Shown: positions 2,366 to 57,886 of the stretch, piece after piece
How the letters are laid out: each line of letters starts with the position of its first letter
How positions within the stretch are numbered: position 1 is the stretch's first letter
Source of the DNA: Candidatus Campbellbacteria bacterium
GTDB lineage: Bacteria > Patescibacteriota > Minisyncoccia > Phycocordibacterales > EsbW-18
Assembly: GCA_045863475.1 (NCBI GenBank)
Contig: BTUR01000001.1
Coordinates: 59,846-123,845 of the forward strand
Reading direction: 5' to 3'
Length of the DNA: 64,000 nt
Translations under genes and position numbers: made by a program
The notes under the pieces: model-generated
The model's input: only the letters and a program-made list of their open reading frames with translations
Told to the model about the DNA's origin: nothing
The model's database searches: none

Positions 2366-3244
2366 ATGGCGTATACTTTCCCCATGCTGCAGAATGTAAA
2401 ACTCTTTTTGTTCTCATTTGTACTTCTTGTGTTTGCAACGGGAAGTATTTGGTATGTCTTGCGCGACGTGGAGCGCGAGCCGACGCTCACGGTTGCGTTT
2501 CTTGATGTCGGACAAGGTGATGCAATTTTTATTGAGAGTCCATCGGGGAAACAAATGCTCATTGATGGTGGGCCGGATAAAAGTGTGGTGCGAGAACTCT
2601 CACGTGTCATGCCATTTTATGACCGCACGATTGATGTCGTCATTAACACACATCCTGACCGCGACCACATCGGCGGGTTACCCGAAGTGCTCAGACGCTA
2701 CCGTGTTGCGCAAGTGTTTGATCCCGGCGTGGAATCGGATTCAGGGACGTACGGGTACTACCGACAACTTATTGAATCAAAGGACATTGAATACATAGCC
2801 GCACGCCGAGGTCAGATAATTGATTTCGGTGATGGAACATATGCAGAAATTTTATTTCCCGACCGGGACCTCAACGGGATTTCAAATGACAATAATGCAT
2901 CGGTTGTTGCGCGTGTCGTGTATGCGAGCACGTCTGTAATGCTTACCGGCGACGCTCCGAAGAGTGTTGAGCAGTATCTTGCTGCACTCGGCGGTGATGC
3001 ATTGGATTCCGATATTTTGAAGGCCGGACATCACGGCTCGCGCACCTCAAGCGGAGAGTTGTTTGTCGTGGCGGTTTCTCCCGTGTGGGCAATTATCTCG
3101 GCGGGGAAGGATAATTCGTACAATCATCCGCACGAAGAGGTGCTGCAAATTTTTGCATCATCAAGTGTCGCAGTGTTGGGTACCTACGATCTCGGCACCA
3201 TTATTTTTGAAAGCGACGGAAAAGAGTTTGTTCTACAAAAATAA
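2366..3244 (+). CDS. ComEC/Rec2-related metallo-beta-lactamase-fold domain protein (stand-alone, membrane anchored)
   Basis: FLDVGQGDAIFIESPSGKQMLIDGG...HPDRDHIGGL...LKAGHHGSRTSS motifs of the ComEC C-terminal MBL domain; N-terminal TM helix. Confidence 0.7.
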   Translation: MAYTFPMLQNVKLFLFSFVLLVFATGSIWYVLRDVEREPTLTVAFLDVGQGDAIFIESPSGKQMLIDGGPDKSVVRELSRVMPFYDRTIDVVINTHPDRDHIGGLPEVLRRYRVAQVFDPGVESDSGTYGYYRQLIESKDIEYIAARRGQIIDFGDGTYAEILFPDRDLNGISNDNNASVVARVVYASTSVMLTGDAPKSVEQYLAALGGDALDSDILKAGHHGSRTSSGELFVVAVSPVWAIISAGKDNSYNHPHEEVLQIFASSSVAVLGTYDLGTIIFESDGKEFVLQK

Positions 3245-3547: not shown

Positions 3548-4225
3548 ATGCCGATACCAAACCGGCTCGCGCATGATATCATGAGGCGACATACTCGTAA
3601 AGTTCTTATGCCCGACCTCGTACAAGCCGCAATTACCATCGCCGTCGTCATTTTTTCCATCGTGTTGCACGAGGTCGCCCACGGCTATGCCGCCAATTAC
3701 CTTGGTGATCCGACGGCGCGGCTGTCGGGGAGGCTCACGCTTAACCCGCTGTCGCACCTGGATTTGTTCGGTTCCGTGCTCGTACCCGTGGTCACCTGGC
3801 TCTCCGGTGGTTTTATCTTCGGGTGGGCGAAACCGGTCCCGTACAATCCCTACAACCTGAAAGCAGCGAGGTTCTCGGAGGCATTCGTTGCCGCTGCAGG
3901 CCCAGCGACAAATCTACTGCTCGCTTTGGTCTTTGGACTCGCCATTCGTTTGTTCGGGGACATATTGCCGGACGGTGTTCTCTTTGTTGCGTTTATTGTT
4001 ACCGTTGCAAACATTGCACTCTTCATCTTCAACCTCATTCCCGTACCACCGTTAGACGGAAGTAAGATTCTTGCATCGGTGTTGCCTCTTCATGTTGCTC
4101 AGAAAATGCTCTCGCTTGAAAAATACGGATTTTTACTTGTTTTTTTGGTTATTCTCGTCGCGTGGCGTGTCATTTCTCCCGTTATTAGTGCGACTTTTTC
4201 ACTCATCACCGGTTTGTCGTTTTAA
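3548..4225 (+). CDS. Site-2 protease / peptidase M50 family membrane metalloprotease (start uncertain: 3530 TTG, 3548 ATG or 3581 ATG)
   Basis: HEVAHGYAA HExxH motif in TM helix, multiple TM segments, LDG motif near C-terminus; divergent from rpmB with only ~10-45 nt between starts. Confidence 0.6.
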   Translation: MPIPNRLAHDIMRRHTRKVLMPDLVQAAITIAVVIFSIVLHEVAHGYAANYLGDPTARLSGRLTLNPLSHLDLFGSVLVPVVTWLSGGFIFGWAKPVPYNPYNLKAARFSEAFVAAAGPATNLLLALVFGLAIRLFGDILPDGVLFVAFIVTVANIALFIFNLIPVPPLDGSKILASVLPLHVAQKMLSLEKYGFLLVFLVILVAWRVISPVISATFSLITGLSF

Positions 4226-4317
4226 CTTGTCCACATAAGGCTTTTTTCCGAAAAAAAGCCTTATTTTTCGTGGTATTATTTGGGGTGGCAACTGAAGCCG
4301 CCGATTTTTCATTGTTC

Positions 4318-7300
4318 ATGACAGAGCGAACACCTACAAAAGCGCTTCTCACCTCGATTTTCCTCCTCGGTTCGTTACTCGGACCTCTCTTTTCTGAGGC
4401 CGAGACGACTGTCGAAGACCCGTTTGCGACAGGGTCCACAACCCCCACACTCTTTGACCGATACGCAACATTTTCCGAAGGTGCGCAGGGCGTTATTTTT
4501 GGCGCATTTGAAAAAACACTCGCGGACGTTCTTGTCGGTTTTCGGTTATACGACGAATTTTCCGCCGGCGCGGAGCGGACGGTTCTCGATGGGTTTACCG
4601 CTTTTGCTGATGGTGCGCTGTCAGCAACATACACATACGAAAACGCAGCAAATATTTTGCATACAGCAACACTCGCGTCAGTGTCCGACGCCGTCGATTC
4701 TGTCGGTGGCAGTGTTGCGTTCGGCAGACGCAGCTATGTAACAGCTGTTGATACCGTGTTTGCATTTGCCGAACGCGCAGTCGTAGACACAACCGACGCG
4801 ACTGTTGAAAATGCGCAACGCATGACGCGTGTCGCGCGCTCACTTGTTTCGTTGGACACATTTGTTGTGCGAAGCACAACGGAAGAAGAAAAAGAAAAAC
4901 TAACTCCAAAACAAGAACCGACCGTCGTGATAAAAAATAATACACTCACTGCGTCAGGGGCTCTCGCGTGGAACACGCTTGGTGGCGTACCTGATGTTGC
5001 AATCGATGCTGCAAAAAATTCTCTCGCAGCAAGCGCAGAAGCAACAACGGGACTGTTTGAGCGCACGCGCCTCGCACTCCGACGCTGGCTTGGTATCGGG
5101 GATGACACAATGGTTGCTGTTCCGGGCACGAATACAACGACAGCCACAACGACGGTCATTGAGCGCATCGTTGAGCGCCCGACGACGGTCACGCAGGTGT
5201 TGCGAAGCAGTGGTGTTTCGTATGCAGACCTCATCAATGCAATTGCAGGATTACGAAACGAACTCCAGCCGCAGATAGACCTTGCGATGGAGCGTCCGCG
5301 CACGGTGTCGCATTCAGGTGATGACGATGATGATGGTGGTGATGGCGGAAGCAGCGGAGATGTAACTGAGGACGACTTGTCCGACAACTCCATTGAGGAC
5401 CTTTCCGATGTCGCTGCGATGACTGAAACATCCGGCGACCTGCTCTACTGGAACGGGGCAACATGGACGAACATCGCAACGTCGTCTTTGGGAATTTCCG
5501 GTGGCTCATCACAATGGACGACCTCCGGTTCAGATATCTACTACACGACAGGCAACGTCGGTGTCGGCACAACGTCGCCTGACGAGCGCCTGACGGTGGG
5601 CGGCAATATTCACGCAACGGGCTCCGTTGATATTGACTCAGGTTCCGAATATCAGATCGGCGGTACGGGGATTCTTACGCGCACGAGCTCGGGCGCCGTA
5701 CTGCTTGGTGACTACAACACGTCGGTCACGCGTGGTACAAACGCACTTGAACTCCAGTCAGCGCCCGGTGACACAACAAACTTCGCGCAAGGAAACAGCT
5801 CAATTGTCATCGGTATGTGGAACCGTGCGTCATCAACAAACGCAATTGCAATCGGTAACAGTAATGAAGCATATTCCGCCGATGACATTCTTGTCGGATA
5901 CGGGAACATGACGCGAGAGACCGCTGCAGCTGGAACACAATCGGACTCGACCATCTTTGGTCGCGCCAACGAAATCTGGAACGTAAATAACTCACTTGCC
6001 CTGGGTGACGATAACTCTCTGACCGGCGGATTTGCGGGGCTTGAGCGTCAGGTAGTTGTGGGCGCATCAAACTCTGTGGAAGGGGCGGGGTACACAAGCG
6101 TATTCGGCTACGACAACACACTCAATGCAGCATCGTCATACTTGTACGCGGTTGCGCTCGGTTCAACCAACATCCTCGGTACTACTCCGGCGTACTCGGT
6201 TGCTGTTGGTTCGAACAACGCACTCGACGGTGCGCGCACGGTTGCCGTCGGTTCCAATGTGTACGCCGGCGGTCCCGAGGCAATCGCCATCGGTGTCGAG
6301 TCGTCAGGTGGAAACATGTTTGCGCTCGGTTATCGCGCGATTTCAATCGGTGTGAATACGCAGGCGAACGCCGACGGCGCGATTGCAATCGGCAACGGCA
6401 TCGTCAACGCGGTTGCCTCGTCCACGCAGATCGGTCCGTCAGACACAGCGAAGCTCACTATCCTTGGTGCCACGGGTTCGGAAGGATTCGTCGGTATTGG
6501 CACGACGACGCCCGCGACAAATCTCGTTGTTGACGGCGACGTTTCAATCACTGGCGGGCTCTACGATTCCGGCACCTCGCTTGGTTCAAACGGCATGGTG
6601 CTTCAGTCAACAGGAACGGGTATCGACTGGGTGTCGACGTCATCTCTTAACATCACCCAAGACCTCTCCGCATACCTGACACTTGCCGACTGGTATGCGA
6701 CAACAACGGACGGACTTGCTGAAGGACTCACAAATCTCTATAACCAAACACACACAGGCGAGGTGACTGGGGCAACAGGTCTCACAATTGCTGATGATGT
6801 TGTCGATGAAGCGAATCTAAAAATAAACGCGGCCGTTGACGGGTATGTTATCTCTGCGTCGTCAACCGCATCTGGCGGGCTTGCGTGGGTCGCGACATCC
6901 AGTTTGGGATTTGGTAGTGGTTCCGGGGTTGTTGGCTCTGGCACAACAGGACAGGTTGCATACTACGCCGCGGACGGCACAGCGGTAACGGGAACGTCGT
7001 CTGTGTTCATTGCACCGAGCGGCAATGTGGGCATCGGTTCAACGACACCGTTGAGTGTGCTAACCGTATCAGGTCCTGCGGCAACAATCTCGATAGACAA
7101 CTCAAGTATCGGAGGTCGGATATACCAGTTGCGCAATGGGGTGTCACCCGTTGGTCGTTTCGAAATATTTGATGTCAGTGCAAATGAGACACGGCTTGCT
7201 ATAGACTCTGATGGAAAGACGGCTATTGGCACATCAACACCGATAGAAGACGCAAGGCTATTTATCTACGGTGGCGCGAATGTCGATATTCGCACAGCGG

Positions 7301-19977: not shown

Positions 19978-20893
19978 GGCCGTACTGAATATGATTACTT
20001 CAATTAACTGCATACCGCGGAGCATATAGATGCGAGCCCTTGTGGTGCGCCTCGAAACCCTCCGCTCAAAAAGCGGTTTTTTTGTTCTCATAGACAGTCG
20101 ATGACCTTTGACAACTGCATAAGCAATAAAGAATCAAATGCTTATTTCGCGCAAGCGAAGTAAGCGCAGGTATCTCGTGCGGCTCATCTAGCGCCGCGCG
20201 GGAATCAAACAACGTGTACCGCGCAGCGGTGTGTTGGTGCACGGAATCGCAGACGCATGTAGGTGCGTATGCGATAAAGACGGTTTTTAGATTTCCTAAC
20301 GGGAGATTTAAAGGGCGTATGGTGGATGCCTTGGTTCTATGTGGCGATGAAGGACGTGGTGTAACTGCGATAAGCTTCGGGGAGGTGTTAAGCAACCTTT
20401 GATCCGGAGATTTCCGAATGGGGAAACCCTGTCGAGTAACCCTCGATAACCGACGCAGCGATGCGCGGAGCATACCCTGGGAAGTGAAACATCTCAGTAC
20501 CAGGAGGAAAAGAAAACAAATGTCATTCCCTTAGTAGCGGCGAGCGAAACGGGAGCAGCCCAAACCACACTGTACTTGTATAGTGTGGCGTTGTAGGGCG
20601 GTAACGCCTGTTTTTAACAAGGAGAAAGTTACAAAATACATCTTTAGTCGAATGCGCTGGAAAGCGCAATCCCAGAAGGTAACAGTCCTGTAGACGAAAA
20701 AGATGTATCTTTCTAGTTACCGTTCCTGAGTACCTCAAGACACGAATAGCTTGGGGGAATCCGCCGGAACTAACCGGCAAGGCTACATACACATAGAGAC
20801 CGATAGTGAACTAGTACCGCGAGGGAAAGGTGAAAAGAACCCCGGAGAGGGGAGTGAAATAGATCTGAAACCATATGCCTACAAGGAGTCAGA

Positions 20894-21228
20894 GCCGAGC
20901 TCTACTTTTTGTTTTTAATTTTCTTTGAACATGTTGAAGGTACGCTCGTGCATATGCACGTTGTGTATCTGATACAAAACACGGTGAGCCACGAACTGTA
21001 CGTTGGTGTAACACGCGACCTTAAAAAGAGGTTGGTGACACATAACAGCGGTGCGGTTACGGCAACGCGACGCAGCGGCGAGTGGGTCTTGATTTACGCG
21101 GAGGCGTATCGAGATGAGCACGACGCGCGCGAGCGAGAGCATCACCTCAAACAGCGCGGCGCGGCAAAACGCGGCGTGTATGAAAGAGTTCGAAGAAGTT
21201 TCCTTGAAAACAAAAAGTAGAGCTTCGG
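20894..21228 (+). other. Intervening sequence (IVS)-like insertion in the 23S helix-25 region, closed by a ~17-bp stem (gccgagctctactttttg ... caaaaagtagagcttcgg)
   Basis: rRNA similarity is interrupted after CAAGGAGTCAGAGC and resumes at GCGTGCCTATTGAAGAATGAGCCAACGAGTT; the insertion termini are an almost perfect inverted repeat. Confidence 0.65.
20954..21220 (+). CDS. GIY-YIG nuclease-superfamily protein (UPF0213-like, ~88 aa) encoded inside the 23S insertion
   Basis: VYLIQN...ELYVGVTRDLKKRLVTHNSG...LIYAEAYRDEHDAREREHHLK GIY-YIG motifs; ORF exactly fills the loop, stop codon TAG lies in the 3' stem arm. Confidence 0.7.
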   Translation: MHVVYLIQNTVSHELYVGVTRDLKKRLVTHNSGAVTATRRSGEWVLIYAEAYRDEHDAREREHHLKQRGAAKRGVYERVRRSFLENKK

Positions 21229-22640
21229 TCATGGCGTGCCTATTGAAGAATGAGCCAACGAGTTTAAGTATGCGGCGAAGCTAAATCCTTTGTCGGATGA
21301 AGCTGCAGGGAAACCGAGTGTTAATAGCGCGTACTTTGAAAGCAAGGAGGTCGGACGTGTAGGTGAGCAATCACACACGCGTTCGGCATTCTCGCTTTCA
21401 AAAGGTCGTATACTTAAGACCCGAAGCTAGGTGAGCTACCCATGAGCAGGGTGAACTTTGTCGAAAGATGAAGGGAGGCCCGAACCGGTTGATGGTGCAA
21501 AATCTTCGGATGACTTGTGGGTTGGAGTGAAAAGCTTATCGAACCTAGTAATAGCTGGTTCTCTCCGAAACAGCTTTTGGGCTGGCGTACAGCGTACCTC
21601 TTGGGGGTAGAGCACTGGATGGTCCGGATAGGGAGAAATCTCGCTGGACCAATCAAACTCCGAATACCAAGAGTAAGTACTGTGCAGTTAGACCGTGGGG
21701 GCTAAGCTCCACTGGTCAAAAGGGAAACAGCCCTTGATCTCAAGTTAAGGTCCCTAAATCGATGCTAAGTGCAAGTCGAGGAGGTGAAATTTCTCAGACA
21801 CTGAGGAAGTTGGCTTAGAAGCAGCCATCTTTTAAAGAAAGCGTAACAGCTCACTCACTCAGAGATTTCGCGCCACAGACTATCGGGGCTAAGTATCGTA
21901 CCGAAACTGAGGATGACACGTGCGTTCGCGCATGTGTCGTGGTAGGAGAGCATTTCCATCTGCGATGAAGCCGAAGGCGTGAGCCACGGTGGAGCGATGG
22001 GAAGAGAGAATGTTGGTACAAGTAACCGCAATGCGGGTGAAATACCCGCACGCCGAAAAACCGAGGTTTCCTTCGCGATGGTAATCAGCGAAGGGTTAGT
22101 CGGGCCTAAGCGAATGGCGAAAGCCGGACGTGATGGACACACGGTTAATATTCCGTGACTCGGCTGTAATTCGATGGAGAGACGGAGTGAAGTATATATC
22201 GCACATTATTGGATTTGTGTCGGGCATGCGAGGAGGTCTGTTTGGCAAATCCGGCAGACACTACTCCAGAGGCATGTTCGGGAACCCAATCTACGGAACG
22301 GGGAACGATATAAAGCGCGCTTCCAAGAAAATCTTCTAAGGTTAATTACAGACGACCCGTACCGCAAACCGACTCCGGTGGTTAGCTCGAGTAGAGTAAG
22401 GCGAACGAGTGAGAGGTCCTCAAGGAACTCGGCAAAAAAGCGACCGTAAGTTAGCAATAAGGTCTGCCTGCGCAGCAGTGCGTGGGCCGCAGCTAAAGTC
22501 TTCCTGGCGACTGTTTATCAAAAACACAGCTCCCTGCGAACTCGTAAGAGGATGTATAGGGGGTGACACCTGACCAATGCCAGAAGGTCAAGTATGGAGG
22601 GTCTTCTCCGCAAGGAGAAGGCTGAGCTATATAAGCCCTG

Positions 22641-22702
<62 letters not shown>

Positions 22703-22765
22703 ACGCCGATGAGAACAAATGCTATGGTACGTAAATAGTCTGTGCGCATGGCGAAGTGCCACGTG

Positions 22766-23425
22766 CTATGCAGTTTCTTCAGGTGCGGCTGTTTCTCCTT
22801 CTCCCTCCGCAGTTTCATCCTTACCTTTCTTTTCCACTTCGATTGCATCCATGTCAATCGGTGCAACCGGCTCTTCGATTTCTTCTTGCGGCTGAGAAAT
22901 TGCGGCAACCACTTCGTCTCCTTCGTTGAGAATCGTAACACCTGCAGGCACGGGTATGTCTTTAATGACAACTTGACTGTCAAACGTTTCAAGCGATGAC
23001 ACATCAACAGTGAGCTCGTGTGGCAAGTCTTTTGGCATCGCCTCAACTTCCACCTCGTGCATCACCTTCACCAGTGTACCACCCAAGTTCTTAACTGCGG
23101 GCGCCTCACCTGTGAACAACAGCGGGACATCGATGCGAAGCTTCTTTCCTTTCTCGATAACGTAAAAATCAACGTGCTCAAATACATCCGTGACCGGATG
23201 TTTTGTAACTTCATGAACGAGCGCGTCTTTCGGCTCACCAACACCTTCCAGTGTGATGATGGATGATTCACCGGCCGAGCGGAACACTTTTTCAAATGTC
23301 TTGCGGTCAACTGCAATCGGCGTGGATTCCTCTTTCGGACCGTAAAAAACCGCCGGAATCTTGCCGCCTTTGCGCAAGCTCTCCGCGTTTCCTGCCTCTC
23401 GTTTTTCTACTGTAAGCGTCAACAT
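22766..23425 (-). CDS. rplY: 50S ribosomal protein L25 / general stress protein Ctc
   Basis: L25/Ctc family (LTVEKREAG..SLRKGGKIPAVFYG, two beta-barrel domains, acidic tail); start set to MLTLTVEKR. Confidence 0.85.
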   Translation of the reverse strand: MLTLTVEKREAGNAESLRKGGKIPAVFYGPKEESTPIAVDRKTFEKVFRSAGESSIITLEGVGEPKDALVHEVTKHPVTDVFEHVDFYVIEKGKKLRIDVPLLFTGEAPAVKNLGGTLVKVMHEVEVEAMPKDLPHELTVDVSSLETFDSQVVIKDIPVPAGVTILNEGDEVVAAISQPQEEIEEPVAPIDMDAIEVEKKGKDETAEGEGETAAPEETA

Positions 23426-31636: not shown

Positions 31637-33040
31637 TTATGAAAGCTTTTCCTTGAGAAGCTTCGCGAGCACCCCGGGGTTCGCCGAACCTTTTGAGAGT
31701 TTCATGCCCTGCCCCACGAGGAACTGCAGCGATGCTTCCTTACCCGCTTTGTATTCTGCAACCACTTTTTCGTTTTGTGCGATAACGTCATCAACGATCG
31801 CGCCAATCGCACCTTCATCGCTTTGCTGCAGCAATCCTTCCCGTTCCGCAATTTCTTTCGGGTTACCGCCCTGGGCCACCATAACAGCGAGCGTATCTTT
31901 TGCGCCGCGTGATGAAAGTTCATTGCCTGCAACCATCCGAATCAATTCCGCGAAGTCACCGGGTGCCACGGTAATCTCTTGCGCACCTTTAAGCAATCCT
32001 GCGAGGTCAGCGGCAATGTAGTTAGCGGCAAGCAAAATCATTTTCGTATCATCACCGAGTTCTTTTGTAACCGCCTCGAAGAAATTGCCGAATACGACAT
32101 CGCCTCGAAACATATTCGCGTCTTCCTGCTTGAGTCCGAATGCGAGGTATCGCTCTTTCTTCTCCCACGGCAATTCCGGTAATTCTTTTTTGAGCGCATC
32201 AACTGAAAACTCGGGAATCTCGGAGATTTTCAGTTTCGGCAAATCAGGTTCCGGGAAATAACGATAGTCATGTGACGATTCTTTCTCGCGCTGTGAGAAT
32301 GTCTCACCTTTCTCATCGTCCCATCCACGGGTTTCCTGCACAATCTTTTCTCCCGCCTCAAGTGCGGCGATTTGCCGCTGTGTCTCGTACTCAATTGCTT
32401 TTTCCGCGGCGCGGAACGAGTTGATGTTTTTTATTTCCGTCTTTGTTCCTAGTGTGCCGTCTTTTGAGACCGAAATATTTACCTCAACACGCAAATGTCC
32501 TTTTTCCATGTCCGCGTCCGACACGCCGAGGTAGCGCAGTAGGAGCTGCAGCTCACGCGCAAAGTCGCCCGCCTCTTTCGACGAGTGAATGACAGGTTCG
32601 GTCACGAGCTCCATCAAAGGCACGCCGGCGCGGTTGAAGTCCACCAATGAGTGATCGCCCTCGTGCTGAGAGCGCGCCGTGTCTTCTTCCAAGTGAATAC
32701 GCGTCAGTGCAACGCCGTTTAAACTGCCGCCGGAGACCAGCGGATACGCGTACTGGCTGATTTGGTAACCTTTCGGGATATCAGGGTAAAAATAATTCTT
32801 CCGGTCGAATTCCGTGTAGTCCGCCAATGTTCCGCCGACGGCGACACCGACCTTCAGCACGTGCTTCACCGCCTCGCGGTTGATGACCGGAAGCGTGCCC
32901 GGATGCGCCATACACACCGGACACACGTTCCAGTTCGGACGCTTCTCGTCCGGGTCATTCTTTGAATCGCAGAACATCTTCGTCTGCGTTTTGAGCTCGG
33001 CGTGAATCTCGAGCCCTATCGTGGGCGTGTACTCCGTCAT
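31637..33040 (-). CDS. gatB: Asp-tRNA(Asn)/Glu-tRNA(Gln) amidotransferase subunit B
   Basis: GatB N-terminal IGLEIHAEL..., central and C-terminal YqeY-like domain. Confidence 0.95.
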   Translation of the reverse strand: MTEYTPTIGLEIHAELKTQTKMFCDSKNDPDEKRPNWNVCPVCMAHPGTLPVINREAVKHVLKVGVAVGGTLADYTEFDRKNYFYPDIPKGYQISQYAYPLVSGGSLNGVALTRIHLEEDTARSQHEGDHSLVDFNRAGVPLMELVTEPVIHSSKEAGDFARELQLLLRYLGVSDADMEKGHLRVEVNISVSKDGTLGTKTEIKNINSFRAAEKAIEYETQRQIAALEAGEKIVQETRGWDDEKGETFSQREKESSHDYRYFPEPDLPKLKISEIPEFSVDALKKELPELPWEKKERYLAFGLKQEDANMFRGDVVFGNFFEAVTKELGDDTKMILLAANYIAADLAGLLKGAQEITVAPGDFAELIRMVAGNELSSRGAKDTLAVMVAQGGNPKEIAEREGLLQQSDEGAIGAIVDDVIAQNEKVVAEYKAGKEASLQFLVGQGMKLSKGSANPGVLAKLLKEKLS

Positions 33041-41326: not shown

Positions 41327-43594
41327 TTATTGCAACTCCCCCGAAGTTGAGGTGCCCGGTCCTTGGATTTGAATCTCTCTGCCAGACTGAACGGCGGCTT
41401 TCAATTCTGTTGCTTGTTGTGCGTACTCCGGAACAAATGCCGCGAGATCATCGGTCAGAACGAGCGCTTCCGTCTTCCTTCCCGCATTCGCCAAGTCGCG
41501 AATACCGATAAGATATTCATCTTTTGTTGCGTTAATGCGTCGCAGCTGTACTCGTTCCACTTCAAACGCGGTGATACGCGATGCCTCGGTATACGAGACG
41601 GGTGTTTTGTAGAGTGCCAGTGAAACCGGCCTGTCTCCAAGCAACCCTTCGGAGAACTGCATGAGCACCGTTTCAGCATCTGCGCGTTTTCCATGGAGGA
41701 ACAACGAAGCTACGTATCGCGTTGCTGCATCAGCACTCTCAGGGGCACTCTCCCAATATCGTTTAAAGATATCTTCTGACTCGGTTTTCTTACCTAAAAG
41801 TTCCAGCACAACACCGTACTCGGCAAGGAAAATCTGTCGGTGCGGGTTAACTTCAAAAAGCTCCGCAAACAGTCGTTCTGATTCCACGAGATTTCCCGTG
41901 CGTGCGTGGAAGACGGCAAGAAAGTACTTCGGACGCGTATTCAAGGGGTCTTCTGCAACACCCTGTTCCAGCTCTGCAAGCGTGCGCTCCAAATACTGTC
42001 GCTTGACCTCATTGGTTACCGTCGGATTATCAGTCGCAGCAACGGTAAATGCGAGCCGGTTCAATTGATACCGCGCTTCGTCATCAGCGACCGGATCCGC
42101 GATTGCATCGTTAAACATCTCCAGAGGCTCGGTGAGACTTCCTTTCTGCAGGGCAAGGACAGCGCCAATAATATTTTTGGATGCGCGGATGTGCGGAATG
42201 GTTGTCATGTACACGAGTACCAGTATCAGAAGTAACACTCCGCCGACAATGGTGTTTCTCAGCGACGAATCGGCAAACACCCCGTCGTTTTGTTGCCGTG
42301 TATTCTGTGCAACAGCAGACGCTTCCCCGCCTAAGCGCACGTACGTCGACGCTATGAATCCCAAAAATAAGAAGAAGAAAATATAGCTGATAAGATTGTC
42401 GAATACGAAGAGGTTGTGGACGAAGTAACCGGCAAGCAGCCCCGTTCCCAAGCTCCGCTCAGGCACAGAGAGCTGCGCCGACTTTCTCCAGAGAATATAG
42501 AGTGCAACGCCAAAAAGCGAGAGGTACGCGAGTAAGCCGACAACACCCGCGGCAATGAGCCAGTCCAAAAATACGTTGTGTGCCCGGTCATACCATGGCT
42601 CCTGCTGATACATCCGCGGATCGTAGTACTTACCGAACACAACGATAAAGTTGTCCTGCCCCCATCCCAAGATCGGACGCTCATAAAATCCCGGAAGCGC
42701 GACGCCATTCCACAGGATGAAGCGGGCTTCTCCGGAATCCGTGTAAATTGAAATATTTGCGAAACGGCTGAGAATCGGCCGTTCCTGCACGAACGACGAA
42801 TCTTTAAATGCGGTAAATACAGCCACGAGCGCAACGAGCGCCAGTATGACGCCGAGAGAAATTTTTCGCAGTCGCGGGTGCGCACCACCGCGCCACGCAA
42901 TCAGAAGTGCTGTGAGACCAAGACCGCCAAGAAGTCCGAGCATCGTACCGCGCGTACCGGTGTTGTAGAGCGCCGCGAATTGTAGAATAAGTGCAGTAAT
43001 ATAAAAAACGGCAGGTCCTTTTGAGCTGTGTTTCCGGTAGAGGAACCATAGCGTCAGGAACATGTGGAAAAGCATGTACACCGCGAGGTAAATCGCGTTT
43101 CCCATAGTTCCGTCAACGCGCACACCTGCTTGTGAAGGGTCAGAAACGCCGAACGCCTGCGCAAGTGCATAAAACGCCATAACGACGGATGCTGCGATAG
43201 ATGTATTCCAGAAAGCGCTCCATAAATTCTTTCGAGTCAAAACCGTTGAGCTCACAAGGAAAAATGCACAGAGATACAGAAACGTCACGAGTCCTTCCAT
43301 GCGCTCAAAGTTACTCCACAAACTGCGCTCAAAGTTCGCGCCGAAGATGTCTGCGACGGCAACAACACCGAAGAATGCGAGTACCGCCCAGAGCATTGGC
43401 GACTTCTTCGGCACATACGAGCGATCGAAAAACAAGAGTGCACACCACAATGCCAGACCGATACCGACAAGAATACGGAATGCAAAGGCTTTTCCGGTAA
43501 TAAACGGGAAATACATGGACCCCGTGACCAAAAACGGGATAAACGGAACAAGAAAGAGGGTACCGAGAATTCCCCACTCAAGATTTTTTTTCAT
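41327..43594 (-). CDS. O-antigen ligase/polymerase-like (Wzy_C) polytopic membrane protein with C-terminal TPR-like domain
   Basis: ~12 TM helices with large periplasmic loop followed by ~300-aa soluble helical-repeat domain. Confidence 0.6.
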   Translation of the reverse strand: MKKNLEWGILGTLFLVPFIPFLVTGSMYFPFITGKAFAFRILVGIGLALWCALLFFDRSYVPKKSPMLWAVLAFFGVVAVADIFGANFERSLWSNFERMEGLVTFLYLCAFFLVSSTVLTRKNLWSAFWNTSIAASVVMAFYALAQAFGVSDPSQAGVRVDGTMGNAIYLAVYMLFHMFLTLWFLYRKHSSKGPAVFYITALILQFAALYNTGTRGTMLGLLGGLGLTALLIAWRGGAHPRLRKISLGVILALVALVAVFTAFKDSSFVQERPILSRFANISIYTDSGEARFILWNGVALPGFYERPILGWGQDNFIVVFGKYYDPRMYQQEPWYDRAHNVFLDWLIAAGVVGLLAYLSLFGVALYILWRKSAQLSVPERSLGTGLLAGYFVHNLFVFDNLISYIFFFLFLGFIASTYVRLGGEASAVAQNTRQQNDGVFADSSLRNTIVGGVLLLILVLVYMTTIPHIRASKNIIGAVLALQKGSLTEPLEMFNDAIADPVADDEARYQLNRLAFTVAATDNPTVTNEVKRQYLERTLAELEQGVAEDPLNTRPKYFLAVFHARTGNLVESERLFAELFEVNPHRQIFLAEYGVVLELLGKKTESEDIFKRYWESAPESADAATRYVASLFLHGKRADAETVLMQFSEGLLGDRPVSLALYKTPVSYTEASRITAFEVERVQLRRINATKDEYLIGIRDLANAGRKTEALVLTDDLAAFVPEYAQQATELKAAVQSGREIQIQGPGTSTSGELQ

Positions 43595-43765
43595 CCCATT
43601 AGAAAGCAGGTCGCGGTCATCAGCCGATTTCGACACTGCAAGATTATCACTGAGTAATTGTCCTCCATTGAAATTACTGACCCCCGTATATTGCGACCGC
43701 GGCTTCTAACGGAATTCATATGAAAAACACTATACCACAGACAAAAAATCTACTGGAAAGCGGGA

Positions 43766-50253: not shown

Positions 50254-51405
50254 CTATTTTGCGCGCCTGGAATGACTGATTCGCTCTAGAAATTCCGCGA
50301 GCGGGCGCTGATAATCGAGAACCGTTTTCCCGCCATACATTTTTTTAAACTGCTCTCGAATCGCCTGTGACATGGATGCAATTGTATCCGGAGGGTTATA
50401 CAGCCCGTGGAGAGCACTCAGCCACACAGCAACATCAGCCCCCTGCGGAAGCACACGCCCCGTAACACCGTCAATAATCAAATCCTTGATACCGCCGACG
50501 TCGCTGGTAATAACCGGCATTCCCGCAAGCGCTGCTTCCATAAAAACCCGCGGAAAACCCTCATAAAAGGACGTGAGTATGAGTACGTGATGCGTTCCGT
50601 ATACCGAAAGAATCTCATCTCTGTTGAGAACACCCCTATCACCTACAACAGACGCGGCACCCGACCGTGTAAGGCCCGCTACAAAATCTTTTTTACGTGT
50701 GCCGTCACCAACAAGTGTAAACCGAACCGCACCGCCAAACTCACCATGCGCTCTAGCAATCACTTTCTCAAGGAGATTTAAATTCTTTTGTTTTTCAAAG
50801 CGACCGATAAAGAGAACTTTCAGCGGCGGAATGTCCGGAGTTGAGCGCGAAAGATTTACAAGAGCATCTGCGTTTGCTGGAAACATGGGTTTGAAAAACA
50901 CCTTGTTTCCGTAAGTAATCCTGAGGTGATCAACCGTCTCGGGACCGTCTGTTTGTATAGCGTCAGCACGTCGGAAAACAAACGGAGCTATGACAGCACT
51001 GATGCGACGTGCAACTGATTCCTTGGTAAACGCGCGGTTACGTATGTCCGTACCATATACCCCGACTGAAAATGGAATTTTGCAGCGTCGTGACAACAGC
51101 CACGCGACAACACCAAGCCAAAACGGATCTTGTGCGTAGATGACGGTAAAGTTTCCGTGCATAGCAACACGGCTAGCCTTTCTCCAGAGAGAAAAAAGAC
51201 CGAGTGGTTTACTACGATACGGTACAGGGTGTACAACAACCGAAGGGCGTACTTCCCTTGCATCAACCGGGATACTTCGTCCAACAACAAGTATCTCTAC
51301 CGACTCATACAGTTGCGCGTACTCCTCCATACGGCGCGCCGTATCGCTGGAAGGATTGAGTACGGACACATCCGTCGAGAGTATGAGGGCTTTGCCGTAT
51401 TTCAT
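50254..51405 (-). CDS. Glycosyltransferase family 4
   Basis: Glycos_transf_1 domain motifs (SFYEGFP..FMEAAL.G.PVI). Confidence 0.8.
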   Translation of the reverse strand: MKYGKALILSTDVSVLNPSSDTARRMEEYAQLYESVEILVVGRSIPVDAREVRPSVVVHPVPYRSKPLGLFSLWRKASRVAMHGNFTVIYAQDPFWLGVVAWLLSRRCKIPFSVGVYGTDIRNRAFTKESVARRISAVIAPFVFRRADAIQTDGPETVDHLRITYGNKVFFKPMFPANADALVNLSRSTPDIPPLKVLFIGRFEKQKNLNLLEKVIARAHGEFGGAVRFTLVGDGTRKKDFVAGLTRSGAASVVGDRGVLNRDEILSVYGTHHVLILTSFYEGFPRVFMEAALAGMPVITSDVGGIKDLIIDGVTGRVLPQGADVAVWLSALHGLYNPPDTIASMSQAIREQFKKMYGGKTVLDYQRPLAEFLERISHSRRAK

Positions 51406-52403
51406 ACCAAGAGATTAGTAAACTCTCGCGCAATGTCTTTATATGAATGTACAAAAGAGAATTCCTGCACGCGCCCCTGGAACGTTTTGTAGATGGTGTC
51501 ATTGCACATCTGCACCACAGCATCTGTAATAGCTACCTCATCAAGCGGATCAACATACAACACGATGTCGCCGAGCCGCTCTGTCAGACCCGTTTCTCGC
51601 GTAAGAATTACGGGTTTGCCGTACGACAGCGCCTCAGACACAAGGTTGGGTGATATGTCCCCAAGCGAGACCAAAATAGCGCAGTAGCACCGCTTGAGCG
51701 CGGTAAGTGTCTCTTCATGCGACACATCAAATCGCATATCCAATAGTGCAGTAGGAGCTTTTTGCTTTGCAAGTACAAATGCACGCATCAGCGTATCTGT
51801 GTTCTTCCATTTCAAATCACGGACGATGCATACAAAATCCTTTCTGGACGGCTGAACCGCCTCATCGGTCTTCTTTTGGAATGCATTTTCGATAATGGAC
51901 GTTTCCTTTGCATCAAGGTTATACGGTTCCTTCCACACGCGCCGTTGATATTCCGAGTTAAACACGATGTGGTCAGCGAGTGAGAGCGCCCATTGCATTA
52001 AACGGAAAATTGTTTGTTCTTTTTTGTTGAAATACCGATGGCCTGTATAAAATTCAGAGAACAGTACTTTGTTCCCTGTCCGCTCTACATATTGCTCCCA
52101 TAAAAAGTCGCCGCCCGTGCGGATAATCATTTTTTTACCGAACCATTTTTTCATCAGCGCGACCGGCACTGCGACTGAAAACGTATCCATGACGATGGTC
52201 GCATCCGCCCACAGGTATGCAGGGAGCGTTTTCAAAAAATACACAGCGTGACGCATCCCCGTTGGGAGCCATCGCTCCAACGTAAATGTCCGCACGGCAA
52301 CTTTGTGGCCAAGTAGTTTGAGTTCTTCACGCAAACTCTTCGCGTAATAGGAAGGGCCGCCGGCATGCGGCGGATAAATACCTGTTGCTATCAAAATCTT
52401 CAT
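51402..52403 (-). CDS. Glycosyltransferase (GT-B fold, GT4-like, divergent)
   Basis: MKILIATGIYPPHAGGPSYY N-terminal GT4 motif; ATGA overlap with downstream GT4. Confidence 0.65.
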   Translation of the reverse strand: MKILIATGIYPPHAGGPSYYAKSLREELKLLGHKVAVRTFTLERWLPTGMRHAVYFLKTLPAYLWADATIVMDTFSVAVPVALMKKWFGKKMIIRTGGDFLWEQYVERTGNKVLFSEFYTGHRYFNKKEQTIFRLMQWALSLADHIVFNSEYQRRVWKEPYNLDAKETSIIENAFQKKTDEAVQPSRKDFVCIVRDLKWKNTDTLMRAFVLAKQKAPTALLDMRFDVSHEETLTALKRCYCAILVSLGDISPNLVSEALSYGKPVILTRETGLTERLGDIVLYVDPLDEVAITDAVVQMCNDTIYKTFQGRVQEFSFVHSYKDIAREFTNLLV

Positions 52404-52423
52404 TATTCTGGATTATCGCATAT

Positions 52424-52445
52424 TCCAATGTTCTTAAGAACATTG
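52424..52445. promoter_or_regulatory. Perfect 9-4-9 palindrome CCAATGTTC TTAA GAACATTGG ~20 nt upstream of the 51402..52403 start codon
   Basis: Read directly; no flanking T-run, so operator-like rather than terminator. Confidence 0.4.
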
Positions 52446-52449
52446 GAGG

Positions 52450-52665
52450 AATAAAAAAGGTCCTCCGTGCATCGAGTCGAAGGGCCAGACAAACCCACTC
52501 CTTCGCCTATAGCTCCCGGAGGGAGACGACGAAGGGGGTGCCGCATTCCCGCGGAGACATGCGGCCGACGCAAGGCGACCGGGGGAACCTCGGCTACCGG
52601 TTTGACCGGAGCTTCACAAACGACCACGGAGGACGCCTTGAGCGTACGCGAGTAAACTCTCAAAA
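52450..52665. other. ~215-nt GC-rich (~63%) hairpin-rich non-coding island interrupting the glycosyltransferase operon
   Basis: Stems ggaggaataaaaaaggtcctcc, gccgcattcccgcggagacatgcggc, ccggtttgaccgg; no convincing ORF or RBS. Confidence 0.3.
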
Positions 52666-52680
52666 GCAAGCCGTTTTCTA

Positions 52681-53841
52681 CTACACCGCAGAGGCAAACA
52701 CTTCTTCGTTCACCCGGCGAGCAATGGTGTCCCAGTTGTAAGTTGTTGCGATGCGCTCAGCACCGTTTTTGATAAGCGATAAGCGAAGTGTCTCGTCTGA
52801 GAGAATTTTGGAAAGTGCCTGTGCAATAGAGTCGGGGTCACCTGCGCGGGCGAACACCCCCGTGACACCGTCCTCCAGAAAGTCAGGAATACCGCCGACC
52901 GGTGTTGCAACAACAGGTACGCCGGCCGCCATCGCCTCAAGAAAGACGATACCGAAACCTTCCGACAGTGGTGTACGCGCGTACACATCCGCACTTGCGA
53001 CAAGTTCACCAACCTTTTCATGTAGTACGTGTCCAAGAAACGTAACGCGTTGTTTAATCCCGTGTTCCCGCGCGAGTGCCTCAAGCGACACGCGACGGCT
53101 TCCGTCGCCGGCGACAATGAGATGCGCGTCGGGAATCTTTGCAACAGCCGCAATAAGATCCTGCACACCGTTCTTGTGTTCAAGGCGCGATGTTGTCACA
53201 ACAAGCTTTGCATCAAGTGGCACCTTGTATGTCTCTCGTACACGTCGCTTCCCCGCCTCGTCCAACGGTTTGAATACGTCCGTTTCCACGCCGTTGGGAA
53301 TCATGACGCACGTGCTCACGCCCTGATTTCTAAAGTGCTTGCACAAATCATTGCTCACCGCATGGCACACACGCGCGCGTCGGTAGACCGCACGCTCAAC
53401 CGCCATCTGTAGACGAACGAGAAAACGTGCCTCCGGATGATAAATAGTAAAGTCGGCCGACTGAATGGTGATGACGTACGGAACGTGCGTAAAAAAAGAG
53501 ACGCACATACAGACGATACCGCTGAAAAATCCGTTGGCGTGCAGTAGCGGCCGTGAAGTTTTCCGGACCGCACGAACAGTCTGAAAAAACAAAATCGGCA
53601 GCGCGGTCAGCACATACCAATACGAGCTGTACGAAAGGTTGGAAAGCGGATACAGCGATGCGGTACGATCAATGTGCAAACGGCCATCTGTTTCGCGCGT
53701 CGGTGTTCCTGCCACGCGTCCGGTAATGATGCGGATATCCATGTCTTGAGACAACCGCTGTGCAATATTTTGTACGAATACCTCAATGCCGCCAATAACG
53801 GGCGGATAGTGTAGAATCGGTATGATGAGTGTAAAACGCAT
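52681..53841 (-). CDS. Glycosyltransferase family 4
   Basis: N-terminal IPILHYPPVIGGIEVFV, C-terminal Glycos_transf_1 motif EGFGIVFLEAMAAGVPVV. Confidence 0.8.
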   Translation of the reverse strand: MRFTLIIPILHYPPVIGGIEVFVQNIAQRLSQDMDIRIITGRVAGTPTRETDGRLHIDRTASLYPLSNLSYSSYWYVLTALPILFFQTVRAVRKTSRPLLHANGFFSGIVCMCVSFFTHVPYVITIQSADFTIYHPEARFLVRLQMAVERAVYRRARVCHAVSNDLCKHFRNQGVSTCVMIPNGVETDVFKPLDEAGKRRVRETYKVPLDAKLVVTTSRLEHKNGVQDLIAAVAKIPDAHLIVAGDGSRRVSLEALAREHGIKQRVTFLGHVLHEKVGELVASADVYARTPLSEGFGIVFLEAMAAGVPVVATPVGGIPDFLEDGVTGVFARAGDPDSIAQALSKILSDETLRLSLIKNGAERIATTYNWDTIARRVNEEVFASAV

Positions 53842-54849
53842 ATGATTACCTTTCATCCAACAGTATCGCTCCTAGAACTTGGTGCAACGCTTTTTGGAAG
53901 CGCTCCGAACCCTGAAAAGCGCCTTACTGAGCTGTTTCCGGGTCATCATAGCATACTTACCGACTCCGGACGCTCCGCACTCGCCGTCATCATAGAAGCC
54001 CTGCACCTGGAAGGCACGCGTATGGCGGTCCCCGCGTTTCTGTGCACAAACCTGCTCCCCGTGCTCACTCACTACCGCATCGAGCCGGTATTTATCGACA
54101 GCGAGCCGGGAACATTCCAATTCCACGCGAGTTCGTACGCGGGAGCATTTCAAAGCGCACTCGTCGTTGCAACATACGGACAGATGCCCGACGCGACGCT
54201 CATTGAAACTCTTGAGCGCCGTAGTGTCCGCGTCATTGAAGACTACGCGCACGTTCCATTGCCGAATACTCCCGAAAATTTCTCGCGCCCGCGCTACTAC
54301 AGCATTGCAAAGACACTACCTGCCCCCGATGGCGGTATTGCGCTTCTCCCCCGAGAATACGCGTATGAAAAAACATTCCCGCGCGCGCAGTGGACACCCG
54401 GGTTTCTAAAAAACACTCTCAAGCTCTGGCGCGTCGTAGCAGCATTCTTATTCCGAGTACGTATTCTTGTGCATAAAACGGAGACGCAGCCACCCGCATG
54501 GCACGGTATCACCGCAATGGCGTCTCTTTCGCGCCGCTGCTTGGGCCGCACACTTGCAAAAGGCAGCCGTTTTTCTCCCGCACCCTACGCGTACTGCTAC
54601 CCTTTGCTTCTCTCCAACCCGGAGCGTGCGCAGCAAACACTTTTCAAAAACGGCATCATCGCCGAGCGCATTTGGAATCCGATTATCGCAGGGGCGCACA
54701 ACGCGCACGCGTTCCCGAATGCGTATGAAAAATCAAACACGACACTGTGCCTTCCGCTGTGGCACATAGACAGCGACACGGCGCTGGAAACATACGAAAA
54801 GAAACTACAGAACGTACTTGCCGGCGAGTTTGCTGGCTTTCGGCAGTAG
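53842..54849 (+). CDS. DegT/DnrJ/EryC1/StrS-like (aminotransferase fold) protein, short and divergent
   Basis: SGRSALAVII..., PAFLC, and YYSIAKTLPAPDGG resembling the SF.xxK..xxGEGG PLP-lysine block; start codon abuts divergent GT4 start. Confidence 0.45.
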   Translation: MITFHPTVSLLELGATLFGSAPNPEKRLTELFPGHHSILTDSGRSALAVIIEALHLEGTRMAVPAFLCTNLLPVLTHYRIEPVFIDSEPGTFQFHASSYAGAFQSALVVATYGQMPDATLIETLERRSVRVIEDYAHVPLPNTPENFSRPRYYSIAKTLPAPDGGIALLPREYAYEKTFPRAQWTPGFLKNTLKLWRVVAAFLFRVRILVHKTETQPPAWHGITAMASLSRRCLGRTLAKGSRFSPAPYAYCYPLLLSNPERAQQTLFKNGIIAERIWNPIIAGAHNAHAFPNAYEKSNTTLCLPLWHIDSDTALETYEKKLQNVLAGEFAGFRQ

Positions 54850-56782: not shown

Positions 56783-57886
56783 TCAGCGTGACGCGACAGT
56801 TTTTCCGCTCGGCAAAATCAAGTCAATCCGGTCGCCTTCTTCGGGAGCCATGTCGGTAATAACCGCAGGAAATGGAATACTCGTGTTTGGTGCAAGTAGT
56901 GTCGCGTTTGGGAATGAAAATGTTTTGTCTTCTTTCTCGCCTGATTTCAGGCGCAGTTCCCAACCGGAGAGATCGAGTTCGTACTCACTTTCATTCCGTA
57001 CTGTTATAAAACCGCGCGGGCCGTACACGACGTCCCCTATCGACACGGCGGGTTCCGTGACACGCACTACCACTTTATCGCGTGACTTCTGCTCTTTTCC
57101 GGAAACCGAGAGTACCGCCGTGTACGTGCCCGGGAAATGGTAGATGTGGTGCACGCTCGCTCTCCTGTCGGTTGCTCCGTCACCGAAGTTCCATGAGTAC
57201 CGTGCAAACTCGAGGCGCTCCCCTTTCTCATCAACACCGTAACCGTCAAAGAATGCAGATGCACCGGCGACCGTGCCGATATCAGGACCGGCATACGAGA
57301 ACGCCCGCTGCACGTAGCCATTGGTTGTTTTTGCGGTCGATGTCTTCTTTGTAGTGCTTGTTCCGGCCACCTCACCCGACTCCTTCTCTTTTTTTGTGTT
57401 CTCGGTGCTGTTTGCCGCACGCGGTGTGGGAACACCTGTAATCCACGAGCCGTCCCCCTGGCGCTGTGCCGTGTGTTTTGTTGTATTGTCGCCGCCGAGT
57501 GACCAGTTCTCACCGCTTTGTACTTCATCAATCTTTGTACCAGAAGCATCACTAAGTGTCAGATGCTCCGTGTCGTTGCCGATTGCTCCGGTAAATATAA
57601 GATCCGCCGGAACATCCGGCACGGACGCGTCATCACTGCGCTCCAACAAAAAGTAGCCACCGGCCTCGATGACACCGGACAGTGCAATGGAGGGCGCGCC
57701 GTCCTCCCCGGAGAGCCGCCAGCCATCAAGCGACATGTGATCGGTGCCGTCGTTGTACAGCTCAATCCATTCGTCGTTTGCCGAAACCGACGTTCCCATC
57801 CAGGCAACTTCGTTGATAACAACAGCAGCCCCGGCCGAAAGTGGCCAGAGTGCGATGCATGTAAACAAAAAGAATGCGTGTTTCAT
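56783..57886 (-). CDS. Secreted protein with lamin-tail domain (LTD), PKD domain and second LTD-like domain
   Basis: Signal peptide; VVINEV...NDEWIELYN.G...LDGWRL (LTD); YSWNFGDGATD...HIYHFPGTYTAVLSVSG (PKD); LDLSGWELRL. Confidence 0.7.
   Translation of the reverse strand: MKHAFFLFTCIALWPLSAGAAVVINEVAWMGTSVSANDEWIELYNDGTDHMSLDGWRLSGEDGAPSIALSGVIEAGGYFLLERSDDASVPDVPADLIFTGAIGNDTEHLTLSDASGTKIDEVQSGENWSLGGDNTTKHTAQRQGDGSWITGVPTPRAANSTENTKKEKESGEVAGTSTTKKTSTAKTTNGYVQRAFSYAGPDIGTVAGASAFFDGYGVDEKGERLEFARYSWNFGDGATDRRASVHHIYHFPGTYTAVLSVSGKEQKSRDKVVVRVTEPAVSIGDVVYGPRGFITVRNESEYELDLSGWELRLKSGEKEDKTFSFPNATLLAPNTSIPFPAVITDMAPEEGDRIDLILPSGKTVASR

Follow-up and report, generated by a model that had tools for sequence, protein, structure and literature searches.

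The window, that is, the whole 64,000-nt stretch of DNA analysed here, carries on its minus strand two genes for family 4 glycosyltransferases that are separated by a non-coding gap of 277 nt (52404..52680). The upstream gene, GT1 (52681..53856, minus strand, 391 aa), matched Pfam Glycos_transf_1 at 2.6e-41, and the downstream gene, GT2 (51402..52403, minus strand, 333 aa), is the first gene of a tightly ATGA-coupled block in which no obvious internal terminators were seen. The neighbourhood encodes further glycosyltransferases, methyltransferases, a deacetylase, a FemAB-like protein and a DegT-like aminotransferase, and the operon makes a cell-surface glycan that is probably important for host attachment. 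The source is a Patescibacteria MAG, and NCBI lists its proteins under Candidatus Campbellbacteria (AMXMBFR44). An earlier examination of this DNA from its letters and open reading frames (the sequence-only reading) had pointed to a 277-nt non-coding gap among genes that overlap by 4 nt. The extent of the gap between GT1 and GT2 was exact, and the 4-nt overlaps were seen in the genes downstream of GT2. The figure of ~63% GC given for the gap applies to its structured core (62.8%) but not to the gap as a whole (55%, compared with 52% for the window). The description of the gap as hairpin-dense was borne out by folding the whole gap against shuffled sequence, with z-scores of -4.9 (gene strand) and -3.8 (opposite strand). 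The same reading had overlooked that the genes lie on the minus strand, and also that, compared with close relatives, the whole gap has been inserted.

The insertion was recognized by comparing the GT1/GT2 junction among related lineages. In L003, L009, L010-13 and L015, the two genes overlap via ATGA with zero gap, and in the outgroups L037 and L041 the gap is only 16-17 nt. The closest comparison is with L003, a MAG contig labelled Saccharibacteria, whose GT1 and GT2 proteins are 73% and 71% identical to those of the window; the lengths and termini of both proteins are the same as in the window, and GT1 ends in '..AV' in both. Because close relatives keep the gapless ATGA junction, the 277 nt of the window constitute an inserted intergenic cassette, in which we distinguish a putative promoter, an RNA, a putative terminator, a relic start codon, a palindrome and a putative GT2 promoter. 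Gaps of 220-245 nt were found at the same junction in L005, L006/7/8, L014, L035/36 and L040, and L039 retains only the 5' half of the RNA, at a contig end. The RNA is thus carried at the same GT1/GT2 junction by seven lineages (the window, L005, L006-8, L014, L035/36, L040 and, in part, L039), which are closely related to each other and effectively represent four to five independent ones. All known copies were located via the flanking proteins, so that this sample is biased towards a GT2-adjacent context. In L015, the operon also contains a GIY-YIG ORF.

The gaps have in common a core of ~175 nt, made up of long invariant blocks plus variable stems that compensate. In the window, the covariance model, the compensatory pairs, the fold z-score and the lack of a conserved ORF point to a structured non-coding RNA of ~183 nt on the minus strand (about 52634..52452). 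Consensus and single-sequence folds gave six helices arranged in a three-way junction with linkers of 3-7 nt. A 14-bp terminal helix, P1, joins both ends of the RNA: its 5' strand, GUCCUCCGUGGUCG (52621..52634, minus strand), pairs with the 3' strand, CGAUGCACGGAGGAC (52460..52474, minus strand), which may double as a terminator stem. P1 continues into P2, a long irregular helix that covaries, and the junction above P2 bears P3, with the invariant hairpin P3a, and the hairpin P4. The hairpin within P3 follows the pattern CGGYCGA-loop-UCGG.CCG, and the junction strand (C)ACCCC was invariant in 6/6 complete copies.

Covariation analysis on the homologous intergenic regions, which the sequence-only reading had put forward as a check, showed that the structure is conserved in relatives. 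In the seven-sequence alignment, standard pairing was found in 96.5% of cells. Compensatory changes occurred in 23 of 62 pairs, compared with 7.1 ± 2.0 in shuffled controls and 1-6 in controls with slid partners, and covariation was present in every helix but the invariant hairpin P3a. In the divergent copy of L040, P1 is kept via four compensatory pairs, and the single-sequence folds of the window core and of L040 reached the same architecture (z = -5.5 and -6.2, respectively). Such numerous compensatory changes, both at 72-78% identity (the window, L005 and the L006 group) and in divergent L040, imply that the fold has been under purifying selection, as far as can be judged from the alignment.

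The covariance model R1, which was built from the first four lineages, gave the window copy 177 bits for the minus strand, against 7 bits for the opposite one. Together with many conserved G-U pairs, this difference places the RNA on the gene strand. Elsewhere, R1 scored the other complete copies at 188-215 bits, the divergent L040 copy at 75 bits and the truncated L039 copy at 44 bits. A protein-coding reading of the gap was rejected, since the copies differ by indels, L040 has stop codons in all six frames and no frame is conserved. Of the options raised from the sequence alone, a novel structured RNA has therefore gained strong support from the compensatory changes in seven lineages, the strand preference and the lack of an Rfam match.

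The search against Rfam 15 covered 4227 models, spanning riboswitches, 6S, SRP, RNase P, tmRNA, ribozymes and group I/II introns, and presumably including those of EAR/epsC and HEARO. At gathering level, only 23S rRNA was matched in the window. When the gap and the L005 and L006 copies were searched at E<=10, only chance matches of 8.7-16 bits were returned (miRNA, CRISPR-repeat, viral-pseudoknot and viral-IRES models). The Infernal/Rfam scan suggested earlier thus left the gap without a match at gathering thresholds or at E<=10. ARAGORN predicted no tRNA or tmRNA gene in the window. Rfam 15 and ARAGORN were both empty in the gap, in agreement with the original remark that it has no tmRNA, RNase P, SRP or 5S signature. 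No description of the gap RNA was found in the literature on structured RNAs of Patescibacteria or Parcubacteria and on 6S RNA. Several known element types were also considered and rejected. A tRNA with an intron, a retron, a DGR template, a bridge or omega RNA and a group I/II intron were discarded, as no gene for a reverse transcriptase, recombinase or TnpB lies next to the gap, an exon context is lacking and the window contains no similar repeat. A MITE or IS-derived element (including IS200/IS605 PATEs) was not supported, given a single copy in 64 kb and no terminal inverted repeats, and 6S RNA was discarded since the fold is a three-way junction without a central bubble and the Rfam 6S models were silent.

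The RNA is present in one copy in the 64-kb window, as judged by blastn, nhmmer and the covariance model. Neither blastn nor nhmmer found further copies in the window, and R1, run over the 64 kb with filters off, returned only short terminator-like hairpins beyond the gap copy. A second covariance model, R2, had no match in any of the RNA-less loci. Two scans of the viral_contigs collection gave 0 matches, and blastn gave none in phage and plasmid records. One strict pattern yielded 19 matches in JGI metagenome contigs, all of which fell by chance in coding DNA rich in GC; as the divergent L040 copy later showed, remote members would have escaped so strict a pattern. Taken together, the alignment and the searches strongly support the gap RNA as a new, previously undescribed family of structured non-coding RNA backed by covariation. 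The family is solid but narrow, comprising a Campbellbacteria-like clade of Patescibacteria and one genomic context.

Promoter-like and terminator-like signals were found at the two ends of the RNA. On the minus strand, a putative -35 box, TTGCTT (52664..52669), is located 17 nt upstream of a putative -10 box, TACGCT (52641..52646). The cTTG of the former and the gTAnnnT of the latter are invariant in the seven lineages, so that cTTG-(17 nt)-TAnnnT is present in 7/7, with a spacer whose sequence itself is not conserved. In the other lineages, the -35 box reads TTGATT or TTGGAG and the -10 box TACTAT, TATTGT, TACTGT or TACTCT. The -35 box overlaps the GT1 stop codon in five lineages, and the end of the -10-like motif is 7-8 nt from the first base pair of P1. 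At the other end, a U-run, UUUUUUAUU (52450..52458, minus strand), comes directly after P1 and may form the tail of a putative intrinsic terminator; five or more U straight after P1 were seen in 6/6 complete copies.

The promoter consensus scan called nothing at the RNA promoter site, where the hexamers are weak (7-8/12 consensus positions). The terminator scan called nothing at P1/U-run, which it cannot call because the 'loop' is a folded domain of ~150 nt, outside the canonical definition. As the consensus scans call nothing, the putative promoter and terminator are proposed from cross-lineage conservation only. We suggest that the RNA is probably made as an independent transcript with paired ends, extending from ~52634 to ~52452. 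The conserved promoter-like and terminator signals tilt the choice between an sRNA and a cis-regulatory RNA, both of which had been offered for this gap, somewhat towards an independent transcript. A conserved alternative pairing of the antiterminator kind was not found across the seven sequences, and the sole candidate, CCCUC/GGAGGG, is broken in L040.

A further promoter-like element precedes GT2. In the window, a putative extended -10 element, TGcGATAAT (52412..52420, minus strand), lies 8 nt before the ATG and may serve as a leaderless or near-leaderless GT2 promoter. In every RNA-bearing lineage, a -10-like hexamer is located 6-8 nt upstream of the GT2 ATG (TAYTAT or TATAGT, with TGcGATAAT in the window), and the background for such a hexamer at such a distance is 9/51 gene starts in the window. 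SD sequences are scarce (8/52 starts in the genome stretch), and other leaderless-looking starts exist, e.g., TATAAT-6-ATG at 33040. In L006 and L035, only ~15 nt lie between the U-run and the GT2 -10-like box. From the conserved hexamer, the rarity of SD sequences and the other leaderless-looking starts, we infer that GT2 would restart as a leaderless mRNA, with the cassette terminating the upstream unit.

Since the genes are on the minus strand, the palindrome of the gap lies downstream of the RNA. It had been described as a 9-4-9 palindrome centred ~30 nt before the next start codon. The palindrome is real and its centre was measured at 32 nt upstream of the ATG, but its size had been understated, as it forms a perfect 24-bp palindrome, TCCAATGTTCTTAAGAACATTGGA (52424..52447), with the two halves TCCAATGTTCTT|AAGAACATTGGA. 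A search for additional copies, which had been proposed along with it, found no second copy in 64 kb. The palindrome remained the only match in the window when up to 3 mismatches were allowed (0 expected by chance), and pairs of its half-sites occur at chance level (2 found, 1.2 expected). It makes up an extra ~30 nt found only in the window copy and is absent from all six related RNA-bearing cassettes, and its right arm abuts a relic start codon, GGAATATGCGA. Counted from the start of the putative GT2 promoter, the palindrome reaches from about -18 to -41 and covers the -35/spacer region, a position compatible with an operator. It adjoins the relic start codon and so may be a template-switch or recombination scar; it could therefore be either an operator or such a scar. 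The gram-positive LexA (Cheo) box is GAAC-N4-GTTC, and a LexA reading of the palindrome was rejected because the order here is GTTC-TTAA-GAAC, the opposite arrangement.

The relic (52416..52426, minus strand) reads ATG CGA, then TAA, is identical to L005 around its GT2 start and sits 18 nt upstream of the real GT2 start of the window. GT2 starts with ATG CGN (MR) in the other RNA-bearing loci and with ATG AAR (MK) in the RNA-less loci, in which the ATGA overlap demands this start. The GT2 of the window also starts with MK (ATG AAG). At the left edge of the window cassette, a ..GCTTGC.. stretch resembles the donor GT1 end and -35 box. Considering the MK start, the donor-type relic and the ..GCTTGC.. 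edge together, it looks as if the intergenic cassette plus a few flanking bases had been copied into an L003-like ATGA junction. A search for a target-site duplication between the GT1 end and the GT2 start revealed only a shared TTGAT-type hexamer, which was unconvincing, and no terminal inverted repeats were found around the cassette.

The flanking genes were compared as well. On a tree of GT2, the lineages that carry the RNA do not form a monophyletic group. Among L006, L014 and L035, identity is 94-98% for the RNA cores and 83-86% for the GT1 3' ends, whereas the GT2 of L006 is only 73% identical to those of L014 and L035; the identity of the L006 RNA thus follows GT1, not GT2. The GT1 of the window is of a different type, with a nucleotide identity of only 55-57% to the other GT1 genes. 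By these sequence relationships, the locus is a mosaic and the cassette looks exchangeable between strains.

On balance, we lean towards the explanation that the gap is a compact gene, complete in itself, whose product is a structured non-coding RNA of a new family. This RNA would be independently transcribed and stable and would split the operon, and it may be trans-acting or derived from the GT1 3'UTR. According to this proposal, a sigma-70-type promoter (TTGCTT-17-TACGCT) would start transcription at ~52634, the first nucleotide of P1, and the RNA would fold as a P1+P2 rod topped by the junction with P3/P3a and P4. The GC-rich P1 followed by the U-run would end the transcript at ~52452, which would leave a closed, exonuclease-resistant RNA of ~183 nt. 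Since P1/U-run would stop transcription of the operon, GT2 and the later genes would need to restart, presumably as a leaderless mRNA from a -10 element of their own located 6-8 nt ahead of the ATG; in the window, the putative GT2 promoter region would additionally bear the lineage-specific 24-bp palindrome. Once released, the stable RNA may act in trans by binding a protein or a ligand. Several observations speak against an independent transcript: the promoter match is weak, at 7-8/12 consensus positions; a terminator stem that closes a multibranch loop of ~150 nt is unconventional; in all known copies the RNA directly precedes the same GT2 orthologue, as a cis-regulatory leader would; and the family is rare, with a single genomic context among its known members.

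A cis-acting leader, i.e., a riboswitch or attenuator, would combine the internal promoter with a P1-closed aptamer that acts as the terminator, and a metabolite (a nucleotide-sugar or an envelope precursor) or a protein would decide read-through into GT2 and the downstream glycan genes. The order of promoter, complex conserved fold, stem plus U-run, 25-55 nt and gene is the classical layout of such leaders, all copies are directly upstream of the GT2 orthologue, and a covariation-supported multibranched fold with invariant junction and hairpin nucleotides is what aptamers show. If the -10-like box is not a promoter, the ~15 nt from the U-run to this box in L006/L035 would make read-through the simplest way to express GT2. 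However, the spacing between the conserved hexamer and the GT2 ATG suits a leaderless start, the seven sequences yielded no mutually exclusive pairing that is conserved and hence no expression platform, and the terminator stem would be P1 itself. The RNA also matches none of the known riboswitch classes, and in close relatives the same genes get by with plain ATGA coupling and without it. We regard such a leader as possible but doubtful. The RNA-less relatives with the same operon likewise count against an EAR- or put-type element for processive antitermination, which would be made within the operon transcript or from the internal promoter and would bind the transcribing RNA polymerase so that terminators in the long glycan operon are ignored. 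The setting is the same as that of the Bacillus subtilis EAR, which is intergenic inside an exopolysaccharide operon (PMC7858274), and this genome clearly makes use of intrinsic terminators with U-runs. The gap RNA, however, ends in its own strong stem and U-run and has no Rfam match even at E<=10, and the downstream genes are ATGA-coupled without obvious internal terminators, all of which makes antitermination of this type quite unlikely.

The cassette might also have no cellular function, being a selfish or neutral insertion: a small cassette that is mobile or is spread by recombination, or else what is left of a lost gene. Its structure would then stem from the mechanism of mobility or simply from GC-rich composition. 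Such an origin would be in keeping with the patchy presence of the cassette, which is not monophyletic on the GT2 tree, with the mosaic locus in which the L006 RNA follows GT1 and not GT2, with the donor-flank relics (GGAATATGCGA and ..GCTTGC..) in an otherwise L003-like ATGA junction, and with the GIY-YIG ORF in the same operon of L015. It is at odds with the many compensatory changes that keep the structure and with the conservation of the promoter and terminator signals. There is also only one copy in 64 kb, with no terminal inverted repeats or clear target duplication and no match in the phage, plasmid and viral collections, and we consider this explanation unlikely. In yet another explanation, the palindrome would be the functional centre, acting as a local transcription-factor operator for GT2, and the hairpins would be incidental. 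The operator option of the sequence-only reading has become weak: the location over the putative TGcGATAAT promoter, about -18 to -41, is a classic repressor position, and a perfect 24 bp is far beyond chance, but the palindrome is missing in all other lineages that conserve the RNA, has no second site in 64 kb (half-site pairs are at chance level), adjoins the relic start codon as a template-switch or recombination scar might, and has no regulator gene identified nearby. That the palindrome is what the gap is there for seems very improbable.

Patescibacteria (CPR) have tiny, gene-dense genomes, and to our knowledge almost nothing is known about their non-coding RNAs. A non-coding cassette of 230-280 nt that is kept by compensatory evolution inside an overlap-coupled operon argues for a selected function. 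With a six-helix fold of ~183 nt, invariant nucleotides in hairpin and junction and nothing related in Rfam, the RNA is a candidate ribonucleoprotein, riboswitch or ribozyme. If it truly splits or regulates the glycan operon, it would provide a handle on surface control in uncultured bacteria. We tentatively entertain a more far-reaching view, in which the RNA would belong to a new class of regulatory RNAs that respond to a ligand or a protein, either as a riboswitch or by modifying RNA polymerase. It would control the surface glycan of episymbiotic, genome-reduced Patescibacteria, would have been acquired and exchanged between strains as a cassette and would use its closing helix as a terminator as well. 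At present, it stands as a narrow new RNA family from seven closely related lineages in a single context, not as a broad discovery.

Among known RNAs, the gap RNA shares with 6S, 4.5S/SRP and RNase P RNA a long terminal helix formed from both ends, a GC content that is high for the genome, a single copy and the appearance of an independent unit. However, it is not a rod with a central bubble, it lacks the SRP domain IV and the RNase P P4 motifs, and none of these families was matched in Rfam. Unlike housekeeping RNAs, it is missing at this locus in sister lineages, a patchy distribution, though it could reside elsewhere in those genomes. With raiA, OLE, HEARO and the GOLLD/ROOL-type motif RNAs, it has in common a complex covarying multi-helix fold, a narrow range, an unassigned function and a non-coding nature. 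What sets it apart is that none of them was matched in Rfam 15, that OLE, GOLLD and ROOL are larger, and that all its known copies lie at a single junction. Transcriptional riboswitches resemble it in the order of promoter, aptamer-like fold, terminator with U-run and gene, and in the conserved junction nucleotides; in the gap RNA, however, the closing helix P1 would be the terminator stem, no conserved antiterminator was found, no class matches, and the RNA is absent in close relatives.

By genomic context, the nearest analogue is the EAR element of Bacillales. In Bacillus subtilis, EAR is a structured RNA between epsB and epsC that mediates processive antitermination on the eps operon (PMC7858274). 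The gap RNA has no sequence or structure similarity to EAR, as judged by the lack of an Rfam match, and differs from it in having its own promoter-like signal and an end formed by a stem and a U-run; it is a three-way junction RNA of ~183 nt from Patescibacteria. The two share their setting, as both are conserved structured RNAs located between genes of an operon for exopolysaccharide or glycosyltransferases (PMC7858274).

The closest genome to the window in the species-level collection, represented by locus L003, carries the label 'uncultured Candidatus Saccharibacteria', but in NCBI the window's own proteins are assigned to Candidatus Campbellbacteria. One of the two assignments is probably incorrect, given that the genomes are fully syntenic here and share 71-73% protein identity.

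Upstream of GT1, the glycosyltransferase gene that precedes the 277-nt gap, lies a gene block (56783..57886 and upstream in the window, minus strand) that recurs in seven relatives' loci (L001, L006, L010, L014, L037, L039, and L041). The block comprises an LTD+PKD domain protein, accompanied in most of these relatives by an ORF of 30-47 aa, and in the loci that extend far enough (L001, L006, L037, and L041) a TrwB-like coupling ATPase is encoded upstream of it. In the window, three extra genes, encoding a deacetylase, a FemAB-like protein, and an opposite-strand DegT-like protein, are inserted between the LTD+PKD block and GT1. The DegT-like ORF (53842..54849, plus strand) overlaps the 5' end of annotated GT1 (52681..53856, minus strand) by 15 nt, and a public gene call gives GT1 386 aa from a start at 53841, versus 391 aa as annotated. 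The downstream ATG is therefore probably the true GT1 start.

Motifs resembling Shine-Dalgarno sequences were found at only 8 of the 52 naive gene starts in the window, and several starts (e.g., 33040, 43636, and 52403) have a good -10 hexamer located 6-8 nt 5' of the start codon. Examples are TATAAT-6-ATG at the minus-strand gene 31637..33040 and TGATAAT-6-GTG at the minus-strand gene 41327..43636. This combination suggests that leaderless mRNAs are frequent in the genome.

A 23S rRNA gene was found at 20299..22833 on the plus strand (1436 bits with the Rfam bacterial LSU model). Its 2535 nt span the full model (positions 1-2925), and thus the 23S rRNA looks markedly shortened. No 16S rRNA, 5S rRNA, or tRNA genes were found across the 64-kb window; with neither a 16S nor a 5S gene beside the 23S, the rRNA genes of this genome appear to be unlinked.

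Relative L015, which lacks the structured RNA found in the window's gap, carries a small ORF of 84 aa with a GIY-YIG domain (4071..4325) within the same glycosyltransferase operon, a hint that mobile elements target this locus. In the RNA-bearing relative L006, a palindromic repeat of its own (GAGGTTTAACCTC..GGAGGTTAAACCTC, ~2766..2800), also present in L007 and L008, overlaps both the stop codon of GT1 and the -35 region in the putative promoter of the RNA gene. This palindrome is lineage-specific and analogous to the perfect 24-bp palindrome of the window (52424..52447); the two are located at opposite ends of the RNA cassette.
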